From an uncultured Clostridia bacterium (GTDB taxonomy: Bacteria; Bacillota; Clostridia; TANB77; CAG-508), in NCBI GenBank assembly GCA_944393135.1, contig CALXZC010000001.1, positions 75,748 through 139,747 on the forward strand: DNA of 64,000 nucleotides. The letters are read 5' to 3'. The notes below the pieces were generated by a model. That model saw only the letters and a program-made list of their open reading frames with translations, was not told the DNA's origin and searched no databases. The translations under genes and the position numbers were made by a program. Below are positions 2,529 to 42,077 of this stretch, in pieces (the first letter of the stretch is position 1; the number at the start of each line of letters is the position of its first letter).

Positions 2529-2545
2529 AAAATATTAGTAGGTAG
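2529..2545 (+). promoter_or_regulatory. late-type motif variant GTAAAATATTAGTAGG
   Basis: Member of recurring GTAAAATAtT..AG family; overlaps 5' arm of terminator hairpin. Confidence 0.35.
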
Positions 2546-2569
2546 AAATACCTACTAATTTTTATTTTA
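2536..2569 (+). terminator. rho-independent terminator
   Basis: tagtaggta-gaaa-tacctacta 9-bp stem followed by attttt atttt. Confidence 0.7.
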
Positions 2570-2586
2570 TGAAGGAGGAATTTAAA

Positions 2587-2985
2587 ATGGATTGGATGTC
2601 AGTTTTAAATCAATGTTTAGACATTATATTACCAGCTATTGCATCAGTAGTGGCCGTTTTATTTGGAGTACTTGGTACAAAAATTAAACAAATTTATAAT
2701 GAAAAAGCACAAAATGAAACAGTAAAAGTGGTTGTAGACAATGTAGTAAAATGGGTTCAACAAGTATATTATGAATTAGAAGGACCTGAAAAATTACAAA
2801 AAGCATTAACAGAAGCAAGCACAATATTAAATGAAAAAGGTATAACAATATCAGAAACAGAATTAGATATGATGATTGAAAGTGCTGTATATGGATTAAA
2901 AAATGGAACACAACAAGCTGAAGAAGTAGTAGAAATATTACCAGAAACAACAGAAACAACAGAAACAGTTATAGAAAATAAATAA
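2587..2985 (+). CDS. small membrane protein with one N-terminal TM helix and acidic C-terminal tail; candidate holin
   Basis: ATG 2587 follows RBS gaaggagga (the track's ATG at 2569 lies inside the RBS); hydrophobic ILPAIASVVAVLFGVLG. Confidence 0.55.
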   Translation: MDWMSVLNQCLDIILPAIASVVAVLFGVLGTKIKQIYNEKAQNETVKVVVDNVVKWVQQVYYELEGPEKLQKALTEASTILNEKGITISETELDMMIESAVYGLKNGTQQAEEVVEILPETTETTETVIENK

Positions 2986-3041
2986 TATATAAAGATTGTA
3001 ATATTTTAGGTTTATAATTTAAGGAAAGGAGAAATAAAATA

Positions 3042-5273
3042 ATGTCAAGTGGAACAATTTCAGCAAGTGGTTCGTGGCATACAGGTCCTACATTGGCAGC
3101 TTCTGGATCTGTTACATTCACAAGACCAGATGAAGCCAGTACTACTATACAAATATCTGGTTCTTTAGGTAACTATCCTGTTCGCCCAGATGATCCGGAA
3201 TATGAATATCATCTAAGAGTTGGTTATTATATAACTATAGACGGACGTACTGTTTGTAGTGGTACTGTTTGTAGTTCTAGTGAAAATGGTAGTGGTAGTA
3301 CCTCTGTAAATGCTACTGCTTCTTCCGACAATAGTTATCCTCGAATTGAAATACATTATACTTGTGGGGAATCCCCTCAATGTACAAAAGGACATCCTGA
3401 TGAGGTTGTAGGTAGTGGATATATTAGTTTACCTTATAACCCATATAAAACACCTACCATAGGTTGTAGCACTTCTTATAATATTTCAATATTTGATCGA
3501 AGAAGGGAAATGTGGGTTGACGCCAATTATTCAGGTGATGATTCTCCTACAACTACATGGGTCGTAGTAAATGGTAATAGAGAAGATTGGAATATAGGAA
3601 ATAGTGGTGGAACTTATGGATTTATACCTAGTCAAAAAGGTGTGTCTGATGGTGTGTCATATACATTTCAAGCCTATAGACAACATAATTATGCTACAGA
3701 TAAAGTAGCTTCTACAAGTTACACATTATATACATATAGAACACCAATTATTAATAGTGTTAGTGTAGATAATCCTAGTTTTAGTGGATTTGGAAAAGTT
3801 AATTTAAGTTGGAGAACAAATGCCAGAAGATGGAGTACAAGTCCAACAGAGGAACCATTTAAAACATACATTAGATTTAATACATCAAGTCCTTTGGCAG
3901 AATGGTTTGAATGTTCAAATAATAATCCTACTGGACCTAATACAAGTAATGAAACTTCTTTACAGTCCGTACAAATAACAAAAGATATGATTGATACTTA
4001 TTTCACCGTAGCTGAAAGATGCCAAGAATCATATAGTACTACCGTACAAATGAAAAGAACAAATGTATCAAGTACTATTGAAGCTGAGAGTAATACATTT
4101 GCAATTACAATACAATTTGCCCCAAAATATGCTCCTAATCAAATAAATTATTGGGATTACAATTCTTCTGCAAGTAATAATAGAGGTAATAGTATAAGTC
4201 CTGGAACAATATGTTATCTAGATTCACATCCTAGGATAGTTATAGATTGGTCTATGCCAAATCAAATAGATAGAGGTGTAATAGACGGATATGAATTATA
4301 TATTTATTCAAGTAGTTCTTATACAACTCATAAAACATTTGATGTTCCTGTGGGAGGTATTGTTACAGATTTATATGGGCAGTATGTAGCAAATATAAGA
4401 AGTGATTTATATAGGGGACAAATGAATTATGTTGGGGTTAGGGCTTATTATATAAATCCATTAGGTGACAAAATGTACGGACCAGAGTTAAGAAAACAAT
4501 TTGTATTTCCACTTGGAAGATTATATACACCAAAAATATCATACCCTGTTAATAATTCAAGATGGCATAATAAAAATTTTAGAATATTATTTGAGTTACC
4601 AACAGATGATGATTATGATGTTTTAAGTAGTTATATTTCAAATGATACATATACATATAAAGAGATTGAATTAACTATTAATGGAACAGTATATAAATAT
4701 ACAACAGACTCTAATATATTCAGTATAAATAAAATGGGTTATAAGTATAGAGTTTGTGTAAATCCATCAATATTAAGTTCATTTCCTGATACAGATACAT
4801 ATAGAATTACAGTAAGGGTACAAAAAAATTATTTTATGAATATTTGGTCCGGCACAAGTAGTACTACGGTTGTATATAAGACTCCTGTTACAAGACAAAA
4901 TTTAGTACAATTTACACCAATATTGGCAACACATTATAAACACGTACAATCAAGTTCAATACGTTTATATAATACATACCCAATAAAGTCTTTACCAACT
5001 AATAATGTGGATCAGGATGTAGGAGATGTTATTTATGCCAAACATTATCAAGCTATATTTGATACAGTTTTAGCAATACAAGATGGAGTAAATACATGGG
5101 CCCGTTATGATTCGGGTAAAGATCGATGTAAATTTCAACAAAACATAGATGAGTTTTCAGGTTCAGATAAAGCAACTAACGATTTAATAACGGCTCAAGA
5201 TGATGAAAGACCAACAAGACAAGGAAGAAATTATTTTAATATTTTAGTAGATAGTATGAATAAGTTATATTAA
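3042..5273 (+). CDS. Ser/Thr/Gly-rich large protein, candidate receptor-binding/structural protein; 5' ~700 nt noticeably GC-richer than surroundings
   Basis: ORF 743 aa; RBS aaggaaaggag; lies between lysis/structural genes. Confidence 0.7.
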   Translation: MSSGTISASGSWHTGPTLAASGSVTFTRPDEASTTIQISGSLGNYPVRPDDPEYEYHLRVGYYITIDGRTVCSGTVCSSSENGSGSTSVNATASSDNSYPRIEIHYTCGESPQCTKGHPDEVVGSGYISLPYNPYKTPTIGCSTSYNISIFDRRREMWVDANYSGDDSPTTTWVVVNGNREDWNIGNSGGTYGFIPSQKGVSDGVSYTFQAYRQHNYATDKVASTSYTLYTYRTPIINSVSVDNPSFSGFGKVNLSWRTNARRWSTSPTEEPFKTYIRFNTSSPLAEWFECSNNNPTGPNTSNETSLQSVQITKDMIDTYFTVAERCQESYSTTVQMKRTNVSSTIEAESNTFAITIQFAPKYAPNQINYWDYNSSASNNRGNSISPGTICYLDSHPRIVIDWSMPNQIDRGVIDGYELYIYSSSSYTTHKTFDVPVGGIVTDLYGQYVANIRSDLYRGQMNYVGVRAYYINPLGDKMYGPELRKQFVFPLGRLYTPKISYPVNNSRWHNKNFRILFELPTDDDYDVLSSYISNDTYTYKEIELTINGTVYKYTTDSNIFSINKMGYKYRVCVNPSILSSFPDTDTYRITVRVQKNYFMNIWSGTSSTTVVYKTPVTRQNLVQFTPILATHYKHVQSSSIRLYNTYPIKSLPTNNVDQDVGDVIYAKHYQAIFDTVLAIQDGVNTWARYDSGKDRCKFQQNIDEFSGSDKATNDLITAQDDERPTRQGRNYFNILVDSMNKLY

Positions 5274-5280
5274 AAAATTA

Positions 5281-5300
5281 AGTAAAATAATAGTAAAGGA
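5281..5300 (+). promoter_or_regulatory. late-type motif variant GTAAAATAATAGTAAAGGAG abutting RBS
   Basis: Near-identical to copy at 32361 (gtaaaataatagtaggagg). Confidence 0.4.
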
Positions 5301-5311
5301 GTTGATATAAT

Positions 5312-6622: not shown

Positions 6623-6633
6623 TAAAATAAAAA

Positions 6634-6666
6634 TAGTGTAGTGTTTAGTAAGCTACACTATTTTTA
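6634..6666 (+). terminator. rho-independent terminator after endolysin
   Basis: tagtgtag...ctacacta 8-bp stem + ttttt. Confidence 0.65.
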
Positions 6667-6730
6667 TATACTTAAATATTACGACAATCAATTTTAAACC
6701 GTTTTTATATAGAATTAATATAAGATTATA

Positions 6731-6749
6731 GTAAAATATTATTAGATGG
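6731..6749 (+). promoter_or_regulatory. late-type motif GTAAAATATTATTAGATGG
   Basis: Recurring motif; followed ~45 nt later by terminator 6792-6826 (possible short transcript). Confidence 0.4.
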
Positions 6750-6791
6750 AATTTCAAAAGTTCTATCATACATCACTTCCTATAAAATAGT

Positions 6792-6826
6792 AAGAGTAGT
6801 TTATACAAACTACTCTTATTTATTTT
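6792..6826 (+). terminator. rho-independent terminator
   Basis: aagagtagt-ttatacaa-actactctt 9-bp stem + atttatttt. Confidence 0.65.
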
Positions 6827-6846
6827 GTAAAATATTATTAGAGTAA
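6827..6846 (+). promoter_or_regulatory. late-type motif GTAAAATATTATTAGAGTAAG
   Basis: ~38 nt upstream of TTG start at 6873. Confidence 0.45.
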
Positions 6847-6872
6847 GTAACGTAAGGTGGTGAAATAAGAAA

Positions 6873-9800
6873 TTGAAATTTAAATTACAAGAAAAAGCTA
6901 ATATCGATTGGAATAATTATCTTACTAGGGATGAAGTGAAAAAGTTTCTTAGTAAGGATGATAAAATAGAAAGTGCTGAAAATATTATATATGATACACA
7001 AGGTAATTTCTTTAACAAGTATTGGAAAGATTTTAAAAAACAGGGATGGAAAAAATTAGAATTAGTAAACGATTTAGAAAGATTTTATACTAATGGTCAC
7101 TTAATAACAGAAGGAATACATTTAATAGCTTATGTTAAAGATAAAAAGAGTGGAGAGTATTCTACAATAGAAGATAGAGATTATAATTCTAAAAAAGATT
7201 TTGAAAAAGAATTAAAAGCAAATGGATATAGTAATATATCTATATTAGATAATAGAGATATGTATTTAATTGATAATACTAATTACACAAGAGTATCACA
7301 ATTAAAGAAAGATTTACAACAACTTAAAAAAGATATTAATGATACTAAGGATAAATATCCTGCTTTATATAAAAGTTATGTTAAAGAATATGACAAATTA
7401 AAAACTATATATGATAATGTAATGAAAATATCTTTAACAGAAGGATATGTATTAAAAGGAATACAAGATGGAAAATCTTTTAATATTTCTTTTAACGATA
7501 ATAAAGAAAAATTACAAAAATTTATGGATGAATTACAACCAAAACATAGAAATATAGATATGTTTATAGTAGAAGAAAGTAAGAAAATAGAAGCATTAAA
7601 ACCAATTAAAAAAGGACAAATGAAGATATTAAATATTGGTGGTGAAAAATTACAAGAAAACCTTAAAGATATAGTATTATACCACGGTTCATTAAACACT
7701 AATTTAACTTACTTGGATATAGGTAAGAGTACAGGTAATGGTGACCAATTAGGTAGAGGAATATATCTAACAACTGATTATGAACAGGCTCAAAGTTATG
7801 CAGGTAATAATGGAAAAGTATATAAAGTTAAATTAGATGATAGTTTAAAATTATTTAATTTAAATGACAAGTTAAGTGATAGTATTAAACAACAATTAAT
7901 TAAAGAATTAGAGAACTCTAATAACAAAGATATTAAAAATTATATTTGTATGTTTAATAGAAAAGTATATGATGTAAAAGATAAACAAGAGGGTTTAAAA
8001 TTTTATCAAGATAAACAAAAAGAATGGGAACAATTAGACGGTAAATATTTTGGTAACAGACCTAAAGTAGTTAAAAATGGAAATAATCTTCAAGTTATAT
8101 ATACAGATTACAGTGATATACAAAGTGCTATAAATAATATGACAGGTGAAAATCTTATAGATACATTAAGAGGAGATATAGACCCAGATGTATTTGTAAC
8201 AATCATAACAAATAGTGGATATGATGGAGTTATAACAAATAATAATCACTGGTATGTAATATATAAAGACATTAATAAAGTTCATATTTTAAATGAAAAT
8301 AGAAAATTTGATAATAAAAATAAATTAGAAGAAGTAAGTAGAAATGAATTATTAGTAAAAACAAAAGGAGAAACAATAACAAGATATAATAAAGCCGCAG
8401 GATATAAAGGATTTAGTATTATAAATATAGATACATCGGATTTATTAAGAGGAAACACATTAACAGTAACTTGTAGAGTAGGAAAATATAATGATGTATT
8501 ACAACTTGAAGATGTATTATATTGGATACAAATAGTCGCAGAAAATAAACAACAAAATCAAATAAATACAAAAGGAATAACAGAAGCGTTATCTAATTCA
8601 ATAGATGGAATGGATATAAAAGTAGATTGTAATTGTGGGGATTTTTGTTTAGAAGAGAATACATTAATAAAATTATTAAATGGACAGGTTGTAACAGTTA
8701 AACAATTAAAAGAGTTATTCGATAAACAAGAAGAATTGTGGATTTATTCAACGGATGAACAAGGTGATTTTAGACCTGGTAAGGTTAATAACGTATGGAT
8801 AAGTGGATATGTAAATGATATGATAAAAGTTACTTTAGATAATGGAAAAGAAATTATAACTACACCAGAACATAAATATATGATGAGAGATGGAAGTTAT
8901 AAAGAGGCACAAGATTTAAAAGAAAAAGATTCTTTAATGCCTTTGTATTTTAGCTATACAAACGGCTATGAAAATGTAAAAAGAAATAGTATTAAGTATC
9001 CAACTAGATTTGATAGTGTGTATAAAATAGTAGCTGATACAGTTTTACAGGAACAAAAACAACTGGCTAAGGATAGAACAGGGGAAGATATTATACAAAT
9101 ACATCATAAGGATTTTAATAAGTTAAATAATTATCCATCTAATTTATATCCTATGGGTAAAATGGAACATTGGATGTATCACGCTCATCTGGGTGGTAAA
9201 AATTTAGAGGCATTACAGGAAGGTAGTAGACGTTTTTGGACATCTGATCCAAGAAGATTTGAAACTAGAGAAAAACAAAAACAAGCTGCAAGGAATTATC
9301 AGTTAAAAATGTGGAGTAGTTTTACACCAAAACAAAGACAAAAATACATTAAAAAATTATCATATAATACTGATAAACAAAAATTATCCCAATCTTTACA
9401 AAATGTATGGAATAATTATACAGAGGAGGAAAAACAACAAAGATTACAAACTAATAATTTTGTAGTAAATAATCCAATGTTAAATGAACAGTTTATAAAA
9501 TCTGATAAGTTTATAGAGAGAAATAATAATATAAGTAATTCTTTAAATAGTTATCATAGTAAACTAACTAAAGAACAAGAACAGAAAATTTACGGTTGGG
9601 CAAAAAATAAACATTTCACAAAAGAACATAGAAAAAAACAAAGTGAAAGTATGAAACAATTTCACAAACAACACCCCGAATTTATACAACAACATTATGA
9701 AGAAATGGTTAAAGGTGCAGAAAAGGGTAGACAAAATAGAAGAAATAAAAAATTACAAAATATGACGGAAGAAGAAAAAGAATTATTTTTATTTAAAGAA

Positions 9801-10604
9801 CAACTTAATAATGTAGATATTAGTAATTATACACTTTCACAGAAAAACGTTATAGGGCATATAAAACCAGTTCTTATTGAAATATATAAAAATAAAGAAG
9901 ATTTTACAAAAGAAACTTATAATAAATATAGAACTAAATTTAATGCACCTAAATTAGAAACATTAGAAAAGATTTTGGGTAGTTGGGTTGATATATGTAA
10001 TAAATATTGTTTAAGTTACAATCATAAAGTAAAAAGTGTGGAATTTATACATTATAAAGAAGCTATACCTGTTTATGATATAGAAGTAGAAAAATATCAT
10101 AATTTCTATGTAGATGCTGGAGTAATGTTACATAATTGTTATAGATTTGCATATATCGCTACCGAATGGGGATATAAATATGGAAAACCAGAAACAAGAC
10201 CAGCTGATATAAGAAATCCAAATGGATTTGGAGCTCTATGTAAACATTTAACAGCAATGTTAAGTAATAAAAAATGGTTACAACAAGTAACAAGTACAGT
10301 TATGGATTGGTGTGAGAAAAATATAGACAAAATAAATGAATTTTTAAAATTAACAGATGAAGATGAACAATTAACCTTACCAAATGAACTTGCTAGACAA
10401 AATGCAAAATTAAGTTGGCAAAATAGAAGTAAAACTAATATAGGTGATAATAATGAAGAACAAAATGCAGAAGATACTGAAAATGATTTACAAGATGTTG
10501 ATAATAACAACGAAGATACTGATAATTCTAATAGTATTAATAATACTACGAATAGTAATGTAGACGACGAAACAGAGCTTGAAGATATAGATGCCAAAAA
10601 ATAA
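6873..10604 (+). CDS. large multidomain protein (1243 aa incl. intein); N-extein with PARP-like/ADP-ribosyltransferase-like signature (YHGS...GRGIYLT), CNC metal-site-like motif at intein junction; precursor containing HNH intein
   Basis: TTG start with RBS aaggtgg; continuous ORF; extein = 6873-8645 + 10137-10604. Confidence 0.7.
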   Translation: MKFKLQEKANIDWNNYLTRDEVKKFLSKDDKIESAENIIYDTQGNFFNKYWKDFKKQGWKKLELVNDLERFYTNGHLITEGIHLIAYVKDKKSGEYSTIEDRDYNSKKDFEKELKANGYSNISILDNRDMYLIDNTNYTRVSQLKKDLQQLKKDINDTKDKYPALYKSYVKEYDKLKTIYDNVMKISLTEGYVLKGIQDGKSFNISFNDNKEKLQKFMDELQPKHRNIDMFIVEESKKIEALKPIKKGQMKILNIGGEKLQENLKDIVLYHGSLNTNLTYLDIGKSTGNGDQLGRGIYLTTDYEQAQSYAGNNGKVYKVKLDDSLKLFNLNDKLSDSIKQQLIKELENSNNKDIKNYICMFNRKVYDVKDKQEGLKFYQDKQKEWEQLDGKYFGNRPKVVKNGNNLQVIYTDYSDIQSAINNMTGENLIDTLRGDIDPDVFVTIITNSGYDGVITNNNHWYVIYKDINKVHILNENRKFDNKNKLEEVSRNELLVKTKGETITRYNKAAGYKGFSIINIDTSDLLRGNTLTVTCRVGKYNDVLQLEDVLYWIQIVAENKQQNQINTKGITEALSNSIDGMDIKVDCNCGDFCLEENTLIKLLNGQVVTVKQLKELFDKQEELWIYSTDEQGDFRPGKVNNVWISGYVNDMIKVTLDNGKEIITTPEHKYMMRDGSYKEAQDLKEKDSLMPLYFSYTNGYENVKRNSIKYPTRFDSVYKIVADTVLQEQKQLAKDRTGEDIIQIHHKDFNKLNNYPSNLYPMGKMEHWMYHAHLGGKNLEALQEGSRRFWTSDPRRFETREKQKQAARNYQLKMWSSFTPKQRQKYIKKLSYNTDKQKLSQSLQNVWNNYTEEEKQQRLQTNNFVVNNPMLNEQFIKSDKFIERNNNISNSLNSYHSKLTKEQEQKIYGWAKNKHFTKEHRKKQSESMKQFHKQHPEFIQQHYEEMVKGAEKGRQNRRNKKLQNMTEEEKELFLFKEQLNNVDISNYTLSQKNVIGHIKPVLIEIYKNKEDFTKETYNKYRTKFNAPKLETLEKILGSWVDICNKYCLSYNHKVKSVEFIHYKEAIPVYDIEVEKYHNFYVDAGVMLHNCYRFAYIATEWGYKYGKPETRPADIRNPNGFGALCKHLTAMLSNKKWLQQVTSTVMDWCEKNIDKINEFLKLTDEDEQLTLPNELARQNAKLSWQNRSKTNIGDNNEEQNAEDTENDLQDVDNNNEDTDNSNSINNTTNSNVDDETELEDIDAKK
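8646..10136 (+). mobile_element. intein (497 aa) with HNH homing-endonuclease domain
   Basis: Starts Cys (CLEENTLIKLLNG, block A), TPEHKYM (block B), internal HH..N..H (IIQIHHKDFNKLNNYPSNLYPMGKMEHWMYHAHLGG), ends VYDIEVEKYHNFYVDAGVMLHN|C (blocks F/G, +1 Cys). Confidence 0.8.
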
Positions 10605-10627
10605 TTAAAAAATATTTATAAAAATCC

Positions 10628-10656
10628 TTTACAAATTTTTAAAAATATGTTATAAC
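10628..10656 (+). promoter_or_regulatory. sigma70-like promoter family copy (TTTACA-17-TATAAC)
   Basis: aaaatccTTTACAaatttttaaaaatatgtTATAACat. Confidence 0.6.
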
Positions 10657-10688
10657 ATAATTGTAAATTAAATATGGAGGAATTTTAA

Positions 10689-11050: not shown

Positions 11051-11094
11051 AAATATAATAAAATGTTATATTATAAATAAGGAGGAGGTAAATT

Positions 11095-15542: not shown

Positions 15543-15577
15543 GGAATTAGTGTAAAAACTAATTCCTTTTTATTTTT
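15543..15577 (+). terminator. rho-independent terminator
   Basis: ggaattagt-gtaaaa-actaattcc 9-bp stem + tttttattttt. Confidence 0.75.
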
Positions 15578-15586: not shown

Positions 15587-15606
15587 GTAAAATATTATTA
15601 GATATT
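15587..15606 (+). promoter_or_regulatory. late-type motif GTAAAATATTATTAGATATT
   Basis: Directly after terminator, 35 nt upstream of ORF 15630. Confidence 0.45.
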
Positions 15607-15629: not shown

Positions 15630-15815
15630 ATGTTTTATTTAGTATTAAATGACGGTAGAAAAATAAACATATTATTTATTAGCAAAATATATGTTCAAGA
15701 TACAGATGTTATTTATGAAACGGCAGTAGGAAGTTTAGATGTAACAAAAGAACATTTTGAAACAGAACAAGATGCTAATAACAGATATGAGAATTTAAAA
15801 CAATTATATGTATAA
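15630..15815 (+). CDS. hypothetical small protein (61 aa)
   Basis: RBS aaaggag. Confidence 0.55.
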   Translation: MFYLVLNDGRKINILFISKIYVQDTDVIYETAVGSLDVTKEHFETEQDANNRYENLKQLYV

Positions 15816-15830
15816 GAGGTGAAAAATTAA

Positions 15831-16247
15831 ATGTTTATATTATTAAAATCTGGAACAATGTTAAATACAGTATGGTTACAAGATTATTATCAAGGAAAAC
15901 ACGATAAAACTAAATTAATATATTTAATGGTTAATGGTACAAAAATAGTAGAAGAATATGATAGTGAACAAGAAGTTCAAGATAAAGTACAAGAAATAAC
16001 AGAAAATATAAATTCTGGTTCTACTACACCAAAATTTAATATAAAAGTAGTTGATGAATTACCAACAACTAATATATCGGAGACTACAATATATTTATTA
16101 AGAACAGGTGATGAAGAAGATAATATGTATTCAGAATACATATATGTAAATAATGATTGGGAATTACTTGGTACACAAAAATTAGATTTATCTAATTATT
16201 ATAATAAACAAGAAATAGATACAATGTTACAATGGAAAGAATATTAA
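15831..16247 (+). CDS. hypothetical protein (138 aa)
   Basis: RBS agaggtg. Confidence 0.6.
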   Translation: MFILLKSGTMLNTVWLQDYYQGKHDKTKLIYLMVNGTKIVEEYDSEQEVQDKVQEITENINSGSTTPKFNIKVVDELPTTNISETTIYLLRTGDEEDNMYSEYIYVNNDWELLGTQKLDLSNYYNKQEIDTMLQWKEY

Positions 16248-16265
16248 TATAAAGGGGGTAACAAT

Positions 16266-16781
16266 ATGGATACATTAACATATAGAAAGAAAATACCTAC
16301 AGAAAATATTAATATTGGTGATGTTATAATGCTTGATGTAGAAACTGGCTATATACAAAGAGCTGTACTTGAAAAATTTCCAGAATATAGTATTAATAGT
16401 AGCTTAGTTATTGGTATATGTATAAGTAGTGATAATGAAACACCGCCTACTATAACAATAGATGGAGGCAAATCTAATACTATAGATAGACAGGAACTAA
16501 ATGGAGGAGATTCTACAAGTACACAAACAATAATTATATATGGAGGAGATTCTACACAAAATCCAAGAGAAATAATACAAGTAGCCTACACAGGAGAACA
16601 AATGGTAAATTTATGTAGTTCTGTAAGGATAGGAGATAGATTATGTATTAGTAACCAACCTGGAAAAGCTATGTCAAAAGATTATTTAGGACAAGAATTT
16701 TATAATTTAAGGTCAATAGGAAAAGTTATACGAGTAAATAAACAAACTAAACAAGCAAAAGTATTATTAGATATCGAATAA
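16266..16781 (+). CDS. hypothetical protein, tail-fibre-associated paralog A (pairs with ORF 32646)
   Basis: RBS aaggggg; shared motifs INIGDVI..L and RSIGKVI...LLD[IV]E. Confidence 0.65.
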   Translation: MDTLTYRKKIPTENINIGDVIMLDVETGYIQRAVLEKFPEYSINSSLVIGICISSDNETPPTITIDGGKSNTIDRQELNGGDSTSTQTIIIYGGDSTQNPREIIQVAYTGEQMVNLCSSVRIGDRLCISNQPGKAMSKDYLGQEFYNLRSIGKVIRVNKQTKQAKVLLDIE

Positions 16782-16797
16782 GAGGAGGTTATTAATA

Positions 16798-19700
16798 GTG
16801 GAAGAAAATCAATTATATACAATTATACTACGACACGATACAAGTTCACAATGGATGGTTAATGACCCTATTTTAGCTTTAGGAGAATACGGTGTTGAAG
16901 ATGATACACATAGAGTTAAACGTGGGGATGGACAAACTAAATGGTCAGAATTAACATATGATACATTTGGACTTGAATATATGTTAACATTTGAAAATAT
17001 ACGAGGAGATGTTACAGATAATAAATCATTACAAGAAGCTTTAAACCAAAAATTATCTGTAGATACATTTGAAGATTCTAACAATAGTGTAATTACATCT
17101 ATAACATTAAAAGAAGAAACAGGAAAAATAGGTAGAATAACAAAAGTAAGTAAAAATGTAAAATTTAATAATACTGTAACAAATTATATAGATATTATTT
17201 CAAAAGATAATTCTATTAATGGAATATGGAGTATAGATAATGATGGAGTAAATATATTAAATTTACAAGCTGTTTCTTCTGTAGAAAATTATGCTCCTTA
17301 TAAAGAATACAAAATTAATCAACTATGTTTTTATAATAATGGATTGTATAGATGTATAGAAACACATATAGCAACTCCAGATTTAGATAAAACAAAATGG
17401 ATAACATTATCTTCATTAAATGCTAGTGATATTAATTTTAATCCAGGTTCTACATCTTTAAAATCTAAAACAGTAAAAAATGCTTTACAAGAATTATCAA
17501 ATAAAGTAGATGCAAAAGTAGAACAAACAACACAACCAAATAAAATATATGGAACTAATGGTAAAGGGGAACAAATATTATTAAGTAAAGATGATTTAGG
17601 AAAAGTAGATAGTGTTAATAATATTAATCCAGATGAAAATAAAAATGTAACAATAGAAGCCAAAGATATACAATACGATAGTGAAAATAGTACTTTAAAT
17701 GTAAAACAAGCTATAGATTTAAAAGCAAATAATGTAGATGTAAAAGAACAATTAAATACTAAAATAGATAAAGATATTGGAGACACTGTTGTTACTAATA
17801 TAGAATTATCAACAGACACAGATATACCTGCCTTTCATATTGTAAAAGCTGATACAGATAGTAAAAGTGAAACAGATTTATATTTACATTTAAAATCAGA
17901 AGGAAATATACAAACTTATGTAAAAAATGACGGTATTATAATTGACAGTACAAATATAGATAATAAGTTAAGTGAGATTTCAGGTAATGAAGACGAATTA
18001 CAAGCATCTATACAAGAAATAAATACAAAAGTAGAAACAAATACAAATAGTATAACAACATTACAAGAAAAAACAGATTCATTACAACAAAACATAAACA
18101 CATTAAATACAGATGTGGATAATGTGGAAAAAACGGTGGAAATTTTAAATAACAAATTATTAACAGTAGATTCAACAATAGAAAATATACAAGAGGATAT
18201 TAATACAATAAATGAAACAAATGAACAACAAGATACACAAATTGCTGATAATACACAAAGTATTGAAGATTTAGATACAAAGTTAACAACAGAAGTACAA
18301 AGATTAGATAATAAAAATACAGAACAAGACACACAAATTACAACAATAAATAATACACTAGACGATATTAATAGTGATATTGATAATATAGATGAGAGTA
18401 TTGCCGATTTAAATTCAGATATAGATAGTATAGAACAAGTAAATACAGAACAAGGAAACAAATTAGGATTAATAGATACTAAATTAGTAGATTTAACAAA
18501 TAAAGATACAGATTTACAGGCACAAATAGATAATATTAATGAAGGACAAGGAACACAAGATACAGAAGTTGAAGGTATTAAAAAACAAATAGAAACAATT
18601 AATACACAAATAACAACAATAAATGAAAAAGACACAGAACAAGATAATACAATAGAAGGAATACAAAATGATTTAACACAATATAAATCTGATATGCAAG
18701 AAACAATAGAACAATTACAACAAGAGGATGCTAGTTTACAACAAGAAGATAGAAATATAAATGGACAAATTGAAACTATAAAATTAGATATCACAAATAT
18801 AAGAGATACACAAGATGTATTAAATACTAATATAGAGGCTAATACACAAAGTATAGAAGAATTAGCTGAAAAAGAGGCTAACGATGTAAAAACACTACAA
18901 GCTAAAGATACAGAGTTAGAAACTAAAAATACAGAACAAGATGGTCGATTATCAAGTATTGAAAACGTTAATTCACAACAAAATACAAGATTGGATAGTA
19001 TAGAAAAAACACAAACACAATTAGATACAGATATAAAAGGTGCTTTACAAGAAATACAAGATTTGGATACTAAAGTGGAAGAACAACTTGAAGATATACA
19101 ACAAATTGCAGAAGACCAATCTACTATGATTGAAAGCATTACAAATAGTGTTGATGTAATAAATAATACTATAACAAATATTAAGAATAAAAATACAGAA
19201 CAAGATAAAGCTATAGATAATTTAACAACAAAAGTAAATAGTAATAATGAAATATTAACAGAAGAAATAGATAATATAAATACTTTAAACCAACAACAAG
19301 CACAACAAATATCAGATATAAATAGTTCTATATCAGATATAAATAGTTCTATTATGAACATAAATGATACAGTTGCAGATATAAATGCAAGTAACTCATA
19401 TTTAGATAATAAAGTAACAAGTATGGCAGGTGAATTAACAGCTGCAACTGAAAATAATACAAGACAAGATGGAGAAATAACTACATTACAACAAGATTTA
19501 GAACAACTTGCCGAAAAAGTAAGTGGAGATGAAACAGAAACAGATACAAATATACAAGAAATAAAACAAGATATAGAAGAATTAAATACAAGTTTAGAAC
19601 AAACAAATAGTAATGTAAAAACAAATACACAACATATAGCAACTAACACAAGTGATATAGATAGTTTAAAAGAAAGAATGACAACAGCCGAACACGGTAT

Positions 19701-22700
19701 AGAAACTAATACACAAAATATAACAACAAATACACAAAATATAGCAACTAATACAGAGGCTATAAATACTTTGAAAACTGAAACACAACAAAAATTAGAT
19801 ACAAAATTAGATAAAACATTTGCAGATAATGTAAATAAAGAATTGGTAAGTGATGTTAGAATTAGTCCTGTTACTCAACAAGAAGCCTCAGTATTATTAA
19901 CAATAGAACAAGATAAATTAAATGTTGAAACTGGTGCTGTAAATACAAAGTCATTACAATTTAAATCAACAGATAATACAATACTTGCTACACCAGAACA
20001 GGATGAAGAAGGACATATTACAGCAATTAATTTGGCAACAAATTTAAATACAGATGTAAATTATTTTATAACTTCACAAACACTTGATGAAACAATAGGA
20101 AACACAAATACTATTCCACAAAATACAATAACAGCAATAACAAAAGAAGGAGTAGAAGTAGAAGATATTATAACAGATAGTGAAGGTACTTGGTCAAGAG
20201 TACAAAGTATAGATGAAGAACAAGATACAGTAACAACAATAACATTCCAAAAACAAAAGGATGCTAGTTGGGGAACAATACAAGGTTCAATATCAAATCA
20301 ACAAGATTTACAAAATGTATTAAATACTAAACTTGATAAAACATTTGCAAGTGGTGAACTACAAAATAATATAATGGGAAGTATAGAATTTAGTCCATCA
20401 GGATTAAGAAACGGTGTATTTATAAGAACAAAAACTATTAATCCAACAAATTCACAAATAAATACATTTGAATCTTATATAACTTCTGATACAAAGCAAT
20501 TAACATTTACACCTGGTTCAGATGGAATAGATTTAGGTGTAAATATAGAGAATGTAAATTTTGATAATAGTAATACAGGATTAACAAATAATAAAGTAGG
20601 AAATGTGTTAAGAGAATTAAAAACATTAGATAATGCAAAAGTAACAACAGAGACATTTAATACATTTAAAACTCAAAATACTCAGGATATAAATAATGCT
20701 GTACAAACAGCAACACAAAGTATTACGGAGGCATATACAAATGCTGATAAGGCTTTAAAACAAGAATTACAACAAGCTGATAGTAATTTACAACAAAGTA
20801 TCACAGATTTACAAAATAATAAATTAGATAAAAACCAAGGAACAAGTAATACAGGAAAACATTTAATAGTAGATGAAAATGGATTAATAACTCCACAAAC
20901 ATATACAGTAGATGTAGGTGTAAAAACAGTAACAAGTGATTATAATTTAGTAGATAATACAAATGCTGCAAATCCAAAAATATTACAAGATACTACTAAA
21001 CTTGATAAAGCCTTTAGTGATAAATATTTAACAGCATTAGGTATAGAACAAAATGACGAACAAGGTGTATTAACTGTAACAACAAAACAAGTAGCAAATA
21101 ATTCAGATGTAATAAGTACTGTAGATTTTGTAGGATTAGGAAGTATAAAAGTTACATCCGCATATGATGAAGATAAACAAAATGATACAGTTAAAATAGA
21201 CGGTAGTGAAATAGTTACACAAATAACAAGTGGATTAAGTACAAAAGTAGATAAAGTAACTACACCGAAAGTAATTTATGGAACAACAGCAGATGGACAA
21301 CAAACTACATATAGTACAACAGAAATTGGTTCTGTAAATAGTGTTAATGGAGTAACTCCACAAAAAGATACAACAAATATATTAATTGACGGTTCACAAA
21401 TTAATGTAGATGAAACACAAGAAGATAAAATAACAATTAAAGATAGTTTAAGTAATAAACTAGATAAAGTAAGTGGAGATACAGTATATTACGGTACGAA
21501 TGCCGAAGGTAATCAAACAACATATAAAGTTGTAAATAATTACTTAACAAATCCATTAGTATTATCTGCAACAACACAAGATATAATAAGATTTAGATAT
21601 ACAAGTGTGGATAACCAAGGAGAGGAAACATTAATAGATAGAAAAATAATTGCAGATGATAAAGATATATTAATTACAGGGCAAGAGGATAGTACAGATA
21701 TACATATTTCTGTAAATTCTGAAAATGTACATTTCGATACAAAGGAAAGTGGATTAACAAGTAATACTATATCAAATGCAATAAGAGAATTAAAAACACT
21801 TGATGATAGTAAAGTTACAACAGAAAATTTAACAACACAGCTTGAAACAATAAATAAAACAATAACAAATAATAAAAAAGAAGTAGATACAACAATACAA
21901 GGAATAGAAACAAATATAGATACTATTGAAGGAAATGTTACAAGCTTAACAAATAATAAACTTGATAAAGTAACAACTGCAAATGTACTATATGGTACAA
22001 ATAGTACAGGAGAACAAACTACATATTCTACAAATGAATTAGGAAAAGTAGAAACAGTAAATAGTATAACACCGGATGAAAATAAAAACATATTAATTGA
22101 TGGAACAAAAATTAATGTTGATGAAACAGAAGAAACAAAAGTTACAATAAAAAATGCTTTAGATACAAAATTAAACAAAGTATCACAAGTAAATAAAATA
22201 TATGGTACAAATAAAGACGGAGAACAAACAACATACACAGTAACTAAACAGGATGATACATATTTGGCATATATTACAAATTTATCAGTAACAGATAATG
22301 AACAAACATTAACATTGAATTTATCAAGACCATTAATTGAAACAGGTGTAAGTACAGAACAACAAACTATAACTTTATTAAATGTAAATAAAGGTATTAA
22401 ATTGGATACTGAAAATGATTTAACATTAATTACAGATTCTGAAACAATACCATTTGATACTAAGACAAGTAGTTTGGTAAGTACAAATATTGCGGAAGCA
22501 ATAAGAGAACTAAAAACACTTGATGATAGTAAAGTAAAAACAACTGATTTTAATAATTATAAAACAGAAGTTACACAAGACATACAAGAAGCTGTACAAA
22601 ATAAACCAACATTGTTACAATATACAAAAAATACAGAATATACAGTAGGACAACTTGTATATATAACAAGAACAGATAATATTACTTTAATGGGATTGGT

Positions 22701-22845
22701 ATTAAAAACATTTACAAGCAATAACACAGAAAATAATACAGCAATACAATCATTTAAAGTAGATGTAGACAGTAAAAACATTTCATTAATTGGAATTCCA
22801 GTTGATTGGAATGATGATATTACAAATGCAGAAGTAACAGAATAA
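16798..22845 (+). CDS. giant tail fibre protein 1 (2015 aa), coiled-coil repeats and triplicated internal modules
   Basis: GTG start with RBS agaggagg; NT(E/Q)QD heptad-like repeats; AIRELKTLDDSKVTTE module x3; YGTN..GEQTTY module x4. Confidence 0.8.
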   Translation: MEENQLYTIILRHDTSSQWMVNDPILALGEYGVEDDTHRVKRGDGQTKWSELTYDTFGLEYMLTFENIRGDVTDNKSLQEALNQKLSVDTFEDSNNSVITSITLKEETGKIGRITKVSKNVKFNNTVTNYIDIISKDNSINGIWSIDNDGVNILNLQAVSSVENYAPYKEYKINQLCFYNNGLYRCIETHIATPDLDKTKWITLSSLNASDINFNPGSTSLKSKTVKNALQELSNKVDAKVEQTTQPNKIYGTNGKGEQILLSKDDLGKVDSVNNINPDENKNVTIEAKDIQYDSENSTLNVKQAIDLKANNVDVKEQLNTKIDKDIGDTVVTNIELSTDTDIPAFHIVKADTDSKSETDLYLHLKSEGNIQTYVKNDGIIIDSTNIDNKLSEISGNEDELQASIQEINTKVETNTNSITTLQEKTDSLQQNINTLNTDVDNVEKTVEILNNKLLTVDSTIENIQEDINTINETNEQQDTQIADNTQSIEDLDTKLTTEVQRLDNKNTEQDTQITTINNTLDDINSDIDNIDESIADLNSDIDSIEQVNTEQGNKLGLIDTKLVDLTNKDTDLQAQIDNINEGQGTQDTEVEGIKKQIETINTQITTINEKDTEQDNTIEGIQNDLTQYKSDMQETIEQLQQEDASLQQEDRNINGQIETIKLDITNIRDTQDVLNTNIEANTQSIEELAEKEANDVKTLQAKDTELETKNTEQDGRLSSIENVNSQQNTRLDSIEKTQTQLDTDIKGALQEIQDLDTKVEEQLEDIQQIAEDQSTMIESITNSVDVINNTITNIKNKNTEQDKAIDNLTTKVNSNNEILTEEIDNINTLNQQQAQQISDINSSISDINSSIMNINDTVADINASNSYLDNKVTSMAGELTAATENNTRQDGEITTLQQDLEQLAEKVSGDETETDTNIQEIKQDIEELNTSLEQTNSNVKTNTQHIATNTSDIDSLKERMTTAEHGIETNTQNITTNTQNIATNTEAINTLKTETQQKLDTKLDKTFADNVNKELVSDVRISPVTQQEASVLLTIEQDKLNVETGAVNTKSLQFKSTDNTILATPEQDEEGHITAINLATNLNTDVNYFITSQTLDETIGNTNTIPQNTITAITKEGVEVEDIITDSEGTWSRVQSIDEEQDTVTTITFQKQKDASWGTIQGSISNQQDLQNVLNTKLDKTFASGELQNNIMGSIEFSPSGLRNGVFIRTKTINPTNSQINTFESYITSDTKQLTFTPGSDGIDLGVNIENVNFDNSNTGLTNNKVGNVLRELKTLDNAKVTTETFNTFKTQNTQDINNAVQTATQSITEAYTNADKALKQELQQADSNLQQSITDLQNNKLDKNQGTSNTGKHLIVDENGLITPQTYTVDVGVKTVTSDYNLVDNTNAANPKILQDTTKLDKAFSDKYLTALGIEQNDEQGVLTVTTKQVANNSDVISTVDFVGLGSIKVTSAYDEDKQNDTVKIDGSEIVTQITSGLSTKVDKVTTPKVIYGTTADGQQTTYSTTEIGSVNSVNGVTPQKDTTNILIDGSQINVDETQEDKITIKDSLSNKLDKVSGDTVYYGTNAEGNQTTYKVVNNYLTNPLVLSATTQDIIRFRYTSVDNQGEETLIDRKIIADDKDILITGQEDSTDIHISVNSENVHFDTKESGLTSNTISNAIRELKTLDDSKVTTENLTTQLETINKTITNNKKEVDTTIQGIETNIDTIEGNVTSLTNNKLDKVTTANVLYGTNSTGEQTTYSTNELGKVETVNSITPDENKNILIDGTKINVDETEETKVTIKNALDTKLNKVSQVNKIYGTNKDGEQTTYTVTKQDDTYLAYITNLSVTDNEQTLTLNLSRPLIETGVSTEQQTITLLNVNKGIKLDTENDLTLITDSETIPFDTKTSSLVSTNIAEAIRELKTLDDSKVKTTDFNNYKTEVTQDIQEAVQNKPTLLQYTKNTEYTVGQLVYITRTDNITLMGLVLKTFTSNNTENNTAIQSFKVDVDSKNISLIGIPVDWNDDITNAEVTE

Positions 22846-23069: not shown

Positions 23070-23087
23070 GTAAAATATTAATAGAGG
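23070..23087 (+). promoter_or_regulatory. late-type motif variant GTAAAATATTAATAGAGG
   Basis: ~49 nt upstream of tail fibre 2 start. Confidence 0.4.
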
Positions 23088-32300: not shown

Positions 32301-32318
32301 TAATCTAATTTGATAAGA

Positions 32319-32351
32319 GGAAGGGTATTTATATCCTTCCTTTATTTGTTT
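32319..32351 (+). terminator. rho-independent terminator
   Basis: ggaagg(g)tat...atatccttcc stem + tttatttgttt. Confidence 0.6.
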
Positions 32352-32360: not shown

Positions 32361-32378
32361 GTAAAATAATAGTAGGAG
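32361..32378 (+). promoter_or_regulatory. late-type motif variant GTAAAATAATAGTAGGAGG abutting RBS
   Basis: Near-identical to copy at 5281. Confidence 0.4.
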
Positions 32379-34853: not shown

Positions 34854-34885
34854 GTAAAATAATTATTGAAAGGTGGGAGATATAA

Positions 34886-35942: not shown

Positions 35943-35973
35943 AAATATTTTATAAAAATATTTGTAAAAACCC

Positions 35974-36002
35974 TTTACAAATTTTTAAAAATATGTTATA
36001 AA
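35974..36002 (+). promoter_or_regulatory. sigma70-like promoter family copy (TTTACA-17-TATAAA)
   Basis: aaaaccctTTACAaatttttaaaaatatgtTATAAAaat. Confidence 0.6.
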
Positions 36003-36035
36003 AATAATTGTAAATTAAATAAGGAGGTAAAATAA

Positions 36036-37862: not shown

Positions 37863-37921
37863 AATTTTTAGGAGGTGTTAAAAATTAAGAAGTTATTAAC
37901 ACATAAGGAGTTGGTAGAAGC

Positions 37922-39245: not shown

Positions 39246-39250
39246 TAGTT

Positions 39251-40390
39251 ATGGAACTAGGAAAAATTAAAAATTATTCACAAACATCAAAATTAGAAAT
39301 GTTAAAACATTTAAAAGAAGGTAAAGTTTTTGATGTAGACGAAAATACAGATTTAAAAACTTCCGAAGTAAGTACTAATATTCCAAAAGATGCTAAAATA
39401 GAAAAAGACGATAAAAAGGCATTTGAGGAATATAAAGCTATGTATAAAGATATTATAACCCAAAAATGTATTGAAGACTACGGTACTGATATAGATAAAC
39501 AATTATGGGAAGATACAGCTAAAGAATTATTTTTAAAAACTAAAACATATATTCCAACAGGAGAAGAGAAATCACAAGGAACTTTAGATAAAAAAGAAGA
39601 AAACAAATTACAATTAGAAAGTAGAGATAGAGTTGCAGAAAATTTATCTAAGTTTATATATGATTTAACTACAGAACAAGATACAGAAGCTTACGGGGAA
39701 ACAGCTTGGTCTGGAAACCAACCTACAAAAATGGGTAATGGTGTTACTGTATATGAAGTATATAAAAATGGTAAATCAAATTACACAATGGACGATATTA
39801 AAAAAGCTGTACTTGAAAAATTTCCAGAATTAGATGTATATGGTACATCATACTCTAGTATATTTTTCTATAAACCACAAAAAACAGAAAATAAATTACA
39901 AGAAGATACTACAAACTTAGAATATAATTATATGTTATTAGATAGATTAAAACAAGACTGTGAATATTTTTTAGGTAATGGAAACGGTAATGTAGATACA
40001 TTATGGGCAAAAGATATAGACGAGCAAATTGCTAAAATGAAAGAATTATATAATTCTTTTACAGATGATGAAAAACCTGAATGGATAACAATAGAAGATA
40101 TAGATAATTACGAAAAGAAAATGAAAGCCTTAAAAGACAGTAAAGAAAAGAAAACAGAAGTTACTGAAAAAGATTTAGATAATGAAGATAAGAAAGAAGA
40201 AACAGTAGTTACAGATTATACATTAAGTGAAATTAAAAAAATTATAGATTCTAATGGAAATGATTTTACAATAAAGATAGTAAATTCAAACGAAGATGTT
40301 GAAACAAAAACATTAAATATTGATAGAGAGGATTTAATTAATATTTATAATGTATTAGGTAATAGTAAAATTACAGAAAACAAAATTTAG
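39251..40390 (+). CDS. hypothetical protein (379 aa)
   Basis: ORF; weak RBS. Confidence 0.65.
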   Translation: MELGKIKNYSQTSKLEMLKHLKEGKVFDVDENTDLKTSEVSTNIPKDAKIEKDDKKAFEEYKAMYKDIITQKCIEDYGTDIDKQLWEDTAKELFLKTKTYIPTGEEKSQGTLDKKEENKLQLESRDRVAENLSKFIYDLTTEQDTEAYGETAWSGNQPTKMGNGVTVYEVYKNGKSNYTMDDIKKAVLEKFPELDVYGTSYSSIFFYKPQKTENKLQEDTTNLEYNYMLLDRLKQDCEYFLGNGNGNVDTLWAKDIDEQIAKMKELYNSFTDDEKPEWITIEDIDNYEKKMKALKDSKEKKTEVTEKDLDNEDKKEETVVTDYTLSEIKKIIDSNGNDFTIKIVNSNEDVETKTLNIDREDLINIYNVLGNSKITENKI

Positions 40391-40466
40391 TTAATGTAGT
40401 TATAGATTATTTTGAAGACCCTGATATGTTTGAATAATATTAAAAATATACTTATAAATTCATTAA

Positions 40467-40501
40467 AAGTAGTGTAAAAATACACTACTTTTTTATTTTT
40501 C
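40467..40501 (+). terminator. rho-independent terminator
   Basis: aagtagtgta-aaa-tacactactt 10-bp stem + ttttttattttt. Confidence 0.8.
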
Positions 40502-40513
40502 TAAAAGTGTAAA

Positions 40514-40533
40514 GTAAAATATTATTGAGTAAG
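40514..40533 (+). promoter_or_regulatory. late-type motif GTAAAATATTATTGAGTAAG
   Basis: Immediately after terminator, upstream of prohead protease-like gene. Confidence 0.45.
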
Positions 40534-40578
40534 ATTTATGATTAATTATAAATTAATAAGAAGGAGATAGATAGAATT

Positions 40579-42033
40579 ATGGGAAAAGCAACTATTATAG
40601 AAGCACAAAATTCTAATACTGTTTATGAGCAAGGTAAAAGTAAAGGTACTTTAGGAAAACTTAAAGGTATTTTCGCTGATTATAAACACGGAACAAGAAA
40701 TAGTGATAGATTATATACAGAAGAACTTTGGGATAATAGAGTGTTTGGTTCTTCTGATGTTATGGAGGCATTACAAACAAAAACATTATTTGGAGAATTA
40801 GACCATCCTGAAGGAGATAGATGTGAAACACTTGCAAAAAATGCTGCGATTACAATTACTAAATTAGAGAAGAGACCAGATGAAGGAGTTATATATGGTG
40901 AAGCAGAAATATTAGATACACCTACTGGAAGAATTGTAAAAGCACTTGCAGATAGTGGAGCACAACTTGGTATAAGTTCAAGAGGTATGGGTGAAGAAAT
41001 ATATCAAGAAGGAAAAAATATTATCGACCCTGAAACCTATGATTTTATAACATTTGATGTTGTTGTAACACCAGCAAATACAAAAGCAAGAGTATCCTTA
41101 ACAGAAAGTAAACACTTAAATAAATTAACAGAAAGTGTAACACGTGAAATAAACGAAAGTGAAACTCAAAATCAATTAAACCAAATTAAATCTGTATTAC
41201 AAAATACTAATATAGAAAATAAAAATACTTTGTTAAAACAAGTAGAGAATAAACTACAAACATTAAATAAACCTGTTAATAATAAATTAACTGAGGCAAA
41301 TAAAACAATAGCTTTGAATTTATTAAAAAAGAGATTTACAGAACAGGCAACTACATTAGAACAAACAATAGAAGCAAGTAACCAACTTGCAAAAGAAAAT
41401 AAACAATTAATAGAAGAAAAACAGTTTTTAGATGAATCAAGAACAACAATAAAATCAAAATTAAAAGAAGCTAAAATACAAATAAATACTTTAAATAAAA
41501 ATATAGAAGATATGAAAACTTCTAATAAAAAAGCTATTAGTCAAAATACACAAGTATTACAAAAACAATTACAGATAGCTTTACAAAAAGCCGAAATGTT
41601 AGAAAGTGTTAATAAAGAATTACAAAAAAGTAATACTAATTTAACAGAAAATAATAAAAAATTAGATAAACAATTAAATAATATACAAGAAATTAATAAA
41701 CAACTAAGTAATGACTTAGATTATAATAATAAACTATTAATAGAAATGGATAATAAAAATAAATCTTTACAAAATAAAGTAAAAATATTACAAGAACAAA
41801 AACAAACAACACAAAATACAAATATAAAATTAACAGAAAATAAAAAATTACAAGAACAAAAAACAAAACAACTAGAAAATAAAGTTAAAGAATTAGAAGA
41901 TGAAGTAAATAGATTTTCAAAATTATCATTTAATCCTGTTATAAAAGCTACAAATATTGTAACAGAAAATTACGAAAATACTGAATATACACAGGACGAA
42001 ATTGATTTATTAAATACTTTAATTAATAAATAG
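40579..42033 (+). CDS. putative prohead protease-scaffold fusion (globular N-domain ~190 aa with His/Ser motifs + ~290-aa coiled coil), T4 gp21/gp22-like by position
   Basis: RBS aaggag; N-domain ELDHPEGD...GISSRGMG; C-terminal K/N/Q heptad coiled coil; immediately upstream of MCP. Confidence 0.5.
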   Translation: MGKATIIEAQNSNTVYEQGKSKGTLGKLKGIFADYKHGTRNSDRLYTEELWDNRVFGSSDVMEALQTKTLFGELDHPEGDRCETLAKNAAITITKLEKRPDEGVIYGEAEILDTPTGRIVKALADSGAQLGISSRGMGEEIYQEGKNIIDPETYDFITFDVVVTPANTKARVSLTESKHLNKLTESVTREINESETQNQLNQIKSVLQNTNIENKNTLLKQVENKLQTLNKPVNNKLTEANKTIALNLLKKRFTEQATTLEQTIEASNQLAKENKQLIEEKQFLDESRTTIKSKLKEAKIQINTLNKNIEDMKTSNKKAISQNTQVLQKQLQIALQKAEMLESVNKELQKSNTNLTENNKKLDKQLNNIQEINKQLSNDLDYNNKLLIEMDNKNKSLQNKVKILQEQKQTTQNTNIKLTENKKLQEQKTKQLENKVKELEDEVNRFSKLSFNPVIKATNIVTENYENTEYTQDEIDLLNTLINK

Positions 42034-42055
42034 TCTTAATTTTAAATTGCGTTAC

Positions 42056-42077
42056 GTAAAATATTATTGAAGTTAAG
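42056..42077 (+). promoter_or_regulatory. late-type motif GTAAAATATTATTGAAGTTAAG
   Basis: Upstream of major capsid gene. Confidence 0.4.

Follow-up and report, generated by a model that had tools for sequence, protein, structure and literature searches.

What turns on the lysis and virion genes of a large AT-rich phage, and which protein reads the signal? The question is posed by a 64,000-nucleotide (nt) stretch of contig CALXZC010000001.1 (positions 75,748 to 139,747, forward strand; here called the window), along which a 16-base AT-rich motif with the consensus GTAAAATAWTAKTAGR recurs ahead of such genes. The motif is a real, conserved regulatory signal and, as far as its sequence and setting tell, very probably the late promoter of the phage clade.

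The window is phage DNA of 25% GC, with long open reading frames (ORFs) essentially all on the plus strand. It encodes a holin, a GH25/LysM endolysin, huge fibre-like proteins, a T4 gp21-type prohead protease and a gp23-type capsid. Genomes with identical or near-identical proteins measure 179–205 kilobases (kb) and carry, 3′ of the window, a gp13-like neck gene followed by sheath and tube genes; the virion module (neck, sheath, tube, protease and capsid) is T4-like. The host is apparently of low-GC Firmicute type. Among isolates, the closest are the Thorneviruses SP-15 and LIS04 and the Streptococcus phage GXN1, with proteases only 31–37% identical to that of the window.

The motif and its placement

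All nine copies listed by a first-pass annotation are present, with starts at 2527 (given as 2529) and 5282 (given as 5281) and the other seven where it had put them. A tenth intergenic copy, at 34854, is weaker. The copies are:

2527–2542, plus strand: motif GTAAAATATTAGTAGG, 5′ of the holin gene (ATG 2587; PHROG 608, E = 4e-21)
5282–5297, plus strand: motif GTAAAATAATAGTAAA, 5′ of the endolysin gene (ATG 5312; PHROG 291, E = 1.6e-103)
6731–6746, plus strand: motif GTAAAATATTATTAGA, first of a tandem pair, with terminator 6789–6820 next
6827–6842, plus strand: motif GTAAAATATTATTAGA, 6 nt after that terminator and 5′ of an intein-bearing ORF of 1243 amino acids (aa; start 6873)
15587–15602, plus strand: motif GTAAAATATTATTAGA, 5′ of gene cluster 15630–22845, which ends in a 2015-aa tail-fibre-like ORF (tail PHROG match)
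23070–23085, plus strand: motif GTAAAATATTAATAGA, 5′ of a 2128-aa fibre-like ORF (ATG 23127)
32361–32376, plus strand: motif GTAAAATAATAGTAGG, its last bases being the start of the Shine-Dalgarno sequence AGGAGG (ATG 32389)
34854–34869, plus strand: degenerate motif GTAAAATAATTATTGA, in a 32-nt gap before ORF 34886, with the 5′ half intact and the 3′ half shifted or degenerate
40514–40529, plus strand: motif GTAAAATATTATTGAG, 5′ of the prohead protease-scaffold gene (ATG 40579; PHROG 207, E = 5e-41)
42056–42071, plus strand: motif GTAAAATATTATTGAA, heading the leader (~187 nt) of the major capsid gene (ATG 42256)

Full copies all stand 5′ of genes for lysis or the virion (holin, endolysin, protease, capsid, fibres); for the holin, the start at 2587 matches that of the gene called in a relative, L142 (relatives carry the prefix L throughout). 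The GTAAAATA element of the motif is missing from the 45–63 kb early region of the window and from the same region of L139, L140 and L141.

By number alone the 8-mer GTAAAATA does not stand out in the window (15 observed versus 17.3 expected), and the signal lies in where it falls: 14 of the 15 occurrences are on the plus strand, and 12 of these 14 are intergenic, although intergenic DNA makes up just 9% of the sequence (binomial p = 2e-11). Four occurrences were discarded as motif copies, each lacking the 3′ half: two are inside coding sequence (5807 and 11639), one sits between a ribosome-binding site (RBS) and its ATG (36027) and one is in a tRNA-like stretch (63846). The longer 15-mer GTAAAATAWTAKTAG is strongly enriched, with five exact copies against 0.02 expected and seven at up to one mismatch against 0.39 expected. 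None of the seven is on the minus strand and all are intergenic.

The motif keeps close company with terminators. The following terminator-like hairpins flank or overlap copies in the window:

2534–2559, plus strand: terminator-like hairpin of 11 base pairs (bp) plus T-run, its 5′ arm overlapping motif positions 8–16 of copy 2527
6789–6820, plus strand: intrinsic-terminator-like hairpin between tandem copies 6731 and 6827
15543–15566, plus strand: terminator-like hairpin, 20 nt 5′ of copy 15587
32316–32343, plus strand: terminator-like hairpin, 17 nt 5′ of copy 32361
40465–40492, plus strand: terminator-like hairpin, 5′ of copy 40514

The first-pass remark that several copies directly follow a terminator hairpin is right for 6827, 15587, 32361 and 40514. 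In such a position, right after the T-tract and with no room for another promoter, the motif would seldom be transcribed from upstream. The claimed spacing of 20–60 nt to a start codon describes eight of the ten copies (28–65 nt from motif start to start codon) and fails for 6731 (142 nt, with a terminator between) and 42056 (200 nt from the capsid ATG). Abutment to an RBS is clear at 32361 (TAGGAGG) and rough at 5282. The tandem copies 6731 and 6827 are spaced 96 nt with a strong terminator between them, such that the first would yield an RNA of only ~80 nt.

Conservation was followed in relatives retrieved with the protease as query (seven loci, on contigs of 24–175 kb, 49–59% amino-acid identity). 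The motif lies 5′ of the protease gene in six of six genomes compared, usually just after a terminator, and 5′ of the capsid gene in five of six, some with two or three tandem copies; the intergenic DNA around orthologous copies is unalignable between relatives. Across 212 kb of window and relatives, all 38 copies that we count at up to one mismatch are on the coding strand. A crude ORF model places 34 of the 38 in intergenic DNA, and 17 have a hairpin and T-run ending no more than 37 nt upstream, often only 6–8 nt. Further copies occur in L128, L132, L133 and L139–L142. The distant clade members L145 and L147 keep GTAAAATAWTA with a variable 3′ half. The motif is absent from the isolates SP-15, LIS04 and GXN1 (35–39% GC), which evidently use other signals. 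Searching a viral contig collection with the exact 15-mer gave, among the matches listed, mostly single chance matches in AT-rich contigs, and at least three matches on clade contigs. A literature search found the exact motif in no paper of the library searched.

We built a profile from 36 sites of the window and its relatives. GTAAAATA is present in all 36, and 12–13 of the 16 positions are invariant across diverged genomes, position 16 showing a purine preference only. Sharing among copies is confined to the 16-bp block: 5′ of the G there is no information except T-rich terminator tails, and no −35 element. With nothing conserved upstream, neither a −35 element nor a site for an upstream activator can be part of the signal.

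Two candidate relatives, L134 and L135, were set aside; they have one gene only in common with the window, carry tRNA arrays and belong to unrelated phages. A search for relatives with the last gene of L140, meant to extend beyond that locus, found none. In L121 (11178) and L124 (11193), unlike in the window, a full motif falls within the coding sequence for the protease-scaffold, at one and the same codon position; these copies might serve as an internal promoter from which a C-terminal scaffold fragment is made, or merely be shared coding sequence.

A predicted late promoter without a −35 element

The first-pass proposal of a late promoter lacking a −35 is supported by strand bias, by the exclusively intergenic position, by the lysis and virion genes downstream, by the post-terminator placement and by conservation; the function itself is read from sequence. 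On this evidence we regard promoter function of some kind as highly likely. The motif would then be a single contiguous DNA signal of the late class with no −35 partner. Its positions T2–T7 (TAAAAT) may be read as a −10 hexamer, with A at −11, T at −7 and the invariant G at −13, the conserved A-W-T-A-K-T would fill the discriminator, and the first transcribed base would be the A or the G of the conserved TAG (motif position 14 or 15). In 32361 and its orthologous copies (L121:1430 and L126:447) AGGAGG begins at motif position 14, which implies that the RNA starts no later than position 15; in relatives, conserved leader hairpins start at motif positions 14–16.

Compared with a sigma-A promoter, the motif has the −10-like hexamer with A at −11 and T at −7 (TAAAAT, invariant). 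It has neither a TTGACA-like −35 at 16–18 bp upstream nor a TG (TRTG) extension; the G directly adjoins the hexamer at −13, and bases further upstream vary.

The same k-mer screen returned a second intergenic family of about ten sites, of the form aaaCC-TTTACA, 17 nt ending in TRTG-n, then TATAAY. By sequence, this is the textbook Gram-positive sigma-A promoter with a −16 region:

55–83, plus strand: sigma-A-type promoter (TTTACA, 17 nt, tgTATAAC)
1069–1097: further sigma-A-type promoter
1681–1709: further sigma-A-type promoter
10628–10656: further sigma-A-type promoter
35974–36002: further sigma-A-type promoter
45034–45062: further sigma-A-type promoter
46790–46818: further sigma-A-type promoter
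49084–49112: further sigma-A-type promoter
57386–57414: further sigma-A-type promoter
60442–60470: further sigma-A-type promoter

These promoters dominate the small-gene block at 45–63 kb, are found ahead of a few virion-region genes as well, and are conserved as a family in L128 and L147. A scan with an early-promoter 14-mer for more genome parts was dominated by chance matches among the matches listed. We propose that early genes are read from these separate strong sigma-A-type promoters and that, late in infection, the host RNA polymerase (RNAP) core would be redirected to GTAAAATA by a phage-specified factor needing no upstream contact, following the logic of T4 gp55 or phiEco32 gp36.

The motif also takes part in unusual local arrangements. 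At copy 2527, the full hairpin (2534–2559) folds with −13.0 kcal/mol (z = −4.6), and an RNA starting at motif position 14 (2540) retains only −4.7 kcal/mol. An upstream transcript can form the full hairpin, so that the site could stop early transcripts and launch late ones. The fusion of motif and terminator recurs at L142:2971. If terminators do share a 5′ arm with the promoter in this way, termination would be limited to transcripts coming from upstream.

In relatives, a motif copy 5′ of the neck-gene module runs straight into a stable hairpin, which begins at motif position 14–16:

L139:14584–14650: motif and hairpin before the neck module
L140:12748–12810: motif and hairpin before the neck module
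L141:13484–13545: motif and hairpin before the neck module
L132:14215–14275: motif and hairpin before the neck module
L128:6790–6855: motif and hairpin before the neck module
L147:16750–16810: motif and hairpin before the neck module

These hairpins have z-scores of −3.3 to −5.2, carry AAAGATATT in the loop and have stems that differ by compensatory changes; they were judged from single-sequence folds, RNAalifold having mis-registered the 3′ arms. In L139, L140, L141 and L128 the hairpin leads into a T-rich tail and a second motif copy 95–150 nt on; in L147 and L132 a small ORF intervenes, with the second copy ~280–350 nt on. The unit may be a small late RNA of roughly 40–50 nt, or a terminator overlapping a promoter. 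Should such promoter–hairpin–terminator units be real, they would make RNAs of roughly 40–85 nt ahead of a second promoter copy.

The capsid mRNA leader headed by copy 42056 (42072–42255) is conserved in L121, L122, L126 and L127. It holds two or three TTTAAAAGATATT boxes, the first in the loop of a weak hairpin (42088–42122); the box may be a regulatory site on RNA or DNA.

Among described systems, T4 offers the obvious comparison. Its late promoters consist of TATAAATA, served by the sigma-like gp55, the co-activator gp33 and the clamp gp45; they start 6–7 nt downstream of the element and are active only late. The motif resembles them as a single AT-rich element at about −10 without a −35, placed before virion and lysis genes in a phage with a T4-type virion module, and the last five bases, AAATA, are common to both elements. 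The T4 flavour noted in the first pass extends to base composition and the missing −35, and stops short of the sequence: GTAAAATA agrees with TATAAATA at only five of eight positions and never at the first three (invariantly GTA here, TAT in T4). The conserved block here spans 16 bp and reaches the putative start site, whereas the T4 element has 8 bp, and no gp55 homologue is detectable in the ~84 kb scanned here. SPO1 (gp28, then gp33/34) shares the arrangement of a phage sigma-like gene behind a host-type early promoter, with separate early and late promoter classes. Its late promoters, however, are bipartite (−35 CGTTAGA, −10 GATATT); the motif here has no −35, and the sigma-like gene here is accessory.

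A motif search upstream of late genes of coliphage rV5 predicted the late motif TggTAaAAtA, which is experimentally unverified, in a phage with no gp55, gp33 or gp45 homologues (PMC3606486). The two motifs share the GTAAAATA core and the position upstream of late genes. They differ in that the rV5 motif has TG two bases upstream, giving it the look of an extended −10, and no conserved 3′ half, and in that rV5 is an unrelated Gram-negative phage. The gp36 promoters of phiEco32 have a 9-bp −10-like element, TAATGTATA, without a −35, and are read by host core with a phage sigma-70-family protein (PMC4331800). Here the likeness is again a single −10-like element without a −35, which in phiEco32 drives structural genes; the sequence is different, and the phiEco32 sigma belongs to the core genes and has a role shown by experiment, whereas the only sigma-like gene visible here is dispensable. 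Promoters of the AR9 virion RNAP are long AT-rich blocks, AAATATATATTAT-(6N)-G+1 (PMC5312081). The AR9/phiKZ group thus shares a long, highly conserved AT-rich block and a conserved start purine with our motif, but its promoters are early and are read by a phage multisubunit polymerase; the targets here are late, and no such polymerase was seen among ~60 ORFs.

The motif belongs to a well-known category, that of phage-specific single-element late promoters, and alone changes no concept. If confirmed, it would provide a ready map of late transcription units for widespread, uncultivated large phages of gut or rumen type, and late genes could be called without homology where most ORFs are unannotated.

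Candidate readers of the motif

The question that follows is which protein reads a 16-bp promoter without a −35 when the obvious sigma candidate is dispensable. That candidate lies in the following element:

60416–61077, plus strand: accessory cassette of 662 nt, comprising the sigma-A-type promoter 60442–60470 and the sigma-like ORF 60498–61037

The ORF is a real, minimal sigma-70-family protein. Residues 51–175 match NCBIfam RpoD C-terminal models at about 1e-10, the best NCBIfam match being the sigma of the MZA anti-phage system (regions 3–4 only), and its homologues have a region-4 signature ending in RHPSR. The AlphaFold model, confident with a predicted local distance difference test (pLDDT) of 86.6, has two helical domains, and its top Foldseek matches are without exception sigma-A or sigma-70 chains of holoenzymes.

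The first-pass annotation had linked this ORF to the motif, and its distribution speaks against the link. In L139 the cassette is replaced by 177 nt, with both flanks 97% identical to the window; it is also absent at the locus in L132, L133, L140 and L141, and all five of these relatives keep identical motif copies, so the co-occurrence test failed. A profile search for the family on the 199–205-kb contigs found no member, and a single-protein search of IMG/VR found no relatives. At the same locus, the family occurs in the window and L149, with divergent homologues (26–38% identical) in L128, L145 and L147. The simplest reading is that a gene absent from motif-bearing relatives is not an obligate late factor: the ORF is probably not the late factor, and the cassette is probably not part of the late-promoter system. 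An SPO1-like cascade, in which host sigma-A would make the phage sigma and this in turn would read GTAAAATA, strikes us as improbable. In its favour are the genuine sigma-70-family fold, the sigma-A-type promoter ahead of the gene, the family members behind such promoters at the same locus in the motif-bearing L128, L145 and L147, and the residues at the −35-contacting helix positions of sigma-70, which differ and could fit the want of a canonical −35. Besides the loss of the cassette, it is opposed by the window protein being only 38% identical to its L128 homologue when motif and neighbouring genes are conserved, and by a protein that retains its sigma-4 domain paired with a motif that has no −35.

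Quite possibly, and we say so tentatively, the motif is instead read by host core polymerase carrying a putative phage specificity factor. Several points weigh against this. Both the promoter activity and its late timing are deduced solely from where the motif lies and what the genes behind it do. TAAAAT matches the host −10 hexamer at five of six positions, and unaided host sigma-A might use it. Sigma-like genes do occupy the same locus in the window, L149, L128, L145 and L147, hence a role for them is possible. T4 gp55, compared by phmmer with every ORF of the window and 19 loci, had no match with E below 0.8. LIS04 and SP-15 have an unrelated sigma-70-family gene (LIS04_95) beside the replication module, and it has no homologues in the clade loci examined, nor in the protein database outside Thorneviruses. 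The late-factor searches covered ~84 kb of a ~200-kb genome type. PHROG scans of the window and flanking-locus ORFs likewise gave no late sigma.

The reader might also be a polymerase other than the host's. The motif is a contiguous, near-invariant 16-bp block, not bipartite, that ends at the putative start site with a conserved G near it, as might be expected of a promoter for a phage-encoded RNAP, be it single-subunit (T7/N4-like) or multisubunit (phiKZ/AR9-like); AR9 virion-RNAP promoters are also long AT-rich blocks (PMC5312081), and the genomes of about 200 kb have some 115 kb beyond the DNA scanned. We nonetheless consider such a polymerase unlikely. No RNAP gene was found among the ~60 ORFs of the window and flanking loci (PHROGs; 20 also with Pfam or NCBIfam), and the long AT-rich promoters of the phiKZ/AR9 group drive early, not late, genes. 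The virion module is T4-like, and T4-like phages, as far as is known, use the host polymerase. More radically, the clade may run late transcription with undescribed machinery, the 16-bp element being read by a new kind of factor or polymerase. With the sole visible sigma gene dispensable and no gp55-like, LIS04-sigma-like or RNAP gene in ~84 kb, a new reader is possible, and we give it a slim chance.

At the other extreme, no phage factor would be needed if the motif were a weak −10-only promoter of unmodified host sigma-A, with gene dosage, DNA state or a non-sigma co-factor determining the late timing. The match of TAAAAT to TATAAT, which includes A at −11 and T at −7, would allow this, as would a low-GC Firmicute-type host, early-class phage promoters that carry the TRTG −16 region, and the failure to find a late factor in the ~84 kb. 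We rate it as rather doubtful: there is no TG at −15/−14 and no −35, and conservation across discriminator and start site is unusual for sigma-A promoters. TAAAAT-like hexamers are, moreover, common at 25% GC (a sigma-70-type scan gave 163 sites versus 165 expected), and with such hexamers everywhere the invariant G and the 8 conserved bp downstream argue for a different reader. Least credible of all, to the point of being very improbable, is action at the RNA level, as a RegA-like translational operator (an alternative offered in the first pass) or as a processing or stability site of late mRNAs. The motif is strictly sense-strand and two copies (32361 and 5282) abut the Shine-Dalgarno sequence. 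Yet overlap with the RBS is clear at one of the ten copies (32361) and approximate at 5282, the others lying ~5–170 nt upstream, so that motif and RBS are separated by anything from 0 to about 170 nt. Many copies lie 6–20 nt after a terminator T-tract, where transcription would have to come from read-through, the gap being too short for another promoter, a terminator separates tandem copies 6731 and 6827, and in relatives some copies precede a hairpin-terminator and not a gene.

Other features of the window

The 1243-aa ORF behind copy 6827 (6873–10604) contains an intein with an HNH-like insert (Intein_splicing, residues 607–1088, 1.1e-24). It has no similarity to the SP-15-type large terminase, nor has a 608-aa ORF any to the SP-15-type portal.

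The capsid gene (42256–44888) is split. An N-terminal exon runs to ~42576, an HNH endonuclease ORF occupies 42713–43633, and capsid coding restarts somewhere within 43634–44360 and ends at 44888. The SP-15 capsid gene is likewise joined, with an endonuclease inside. The insertion is likely a group I intron; an Rfam search aimed at such introns returned nothing at threshold for the split gene, and bases 43600–43765 resemble unannotated DNA of many unrelated large phages. Directly 3′ of the capsid gene, 44867–44976 gives a sub-threshold match to the L20 leader (29.6 bits versus a gathering score of 58.7) that is probably due to chance.

Past the cassette lie tRNA-Trp(CCA) at 61093–61167 and tRNA-Leu(TAA) at 61360–61448, and at the window end (~63830–63895) a weak tRNA-like stretch (25 bits, below threshold, scored in L139). 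A 559-aa homing endonuclease (45083–46762) has its own sigma-A-type promoter.

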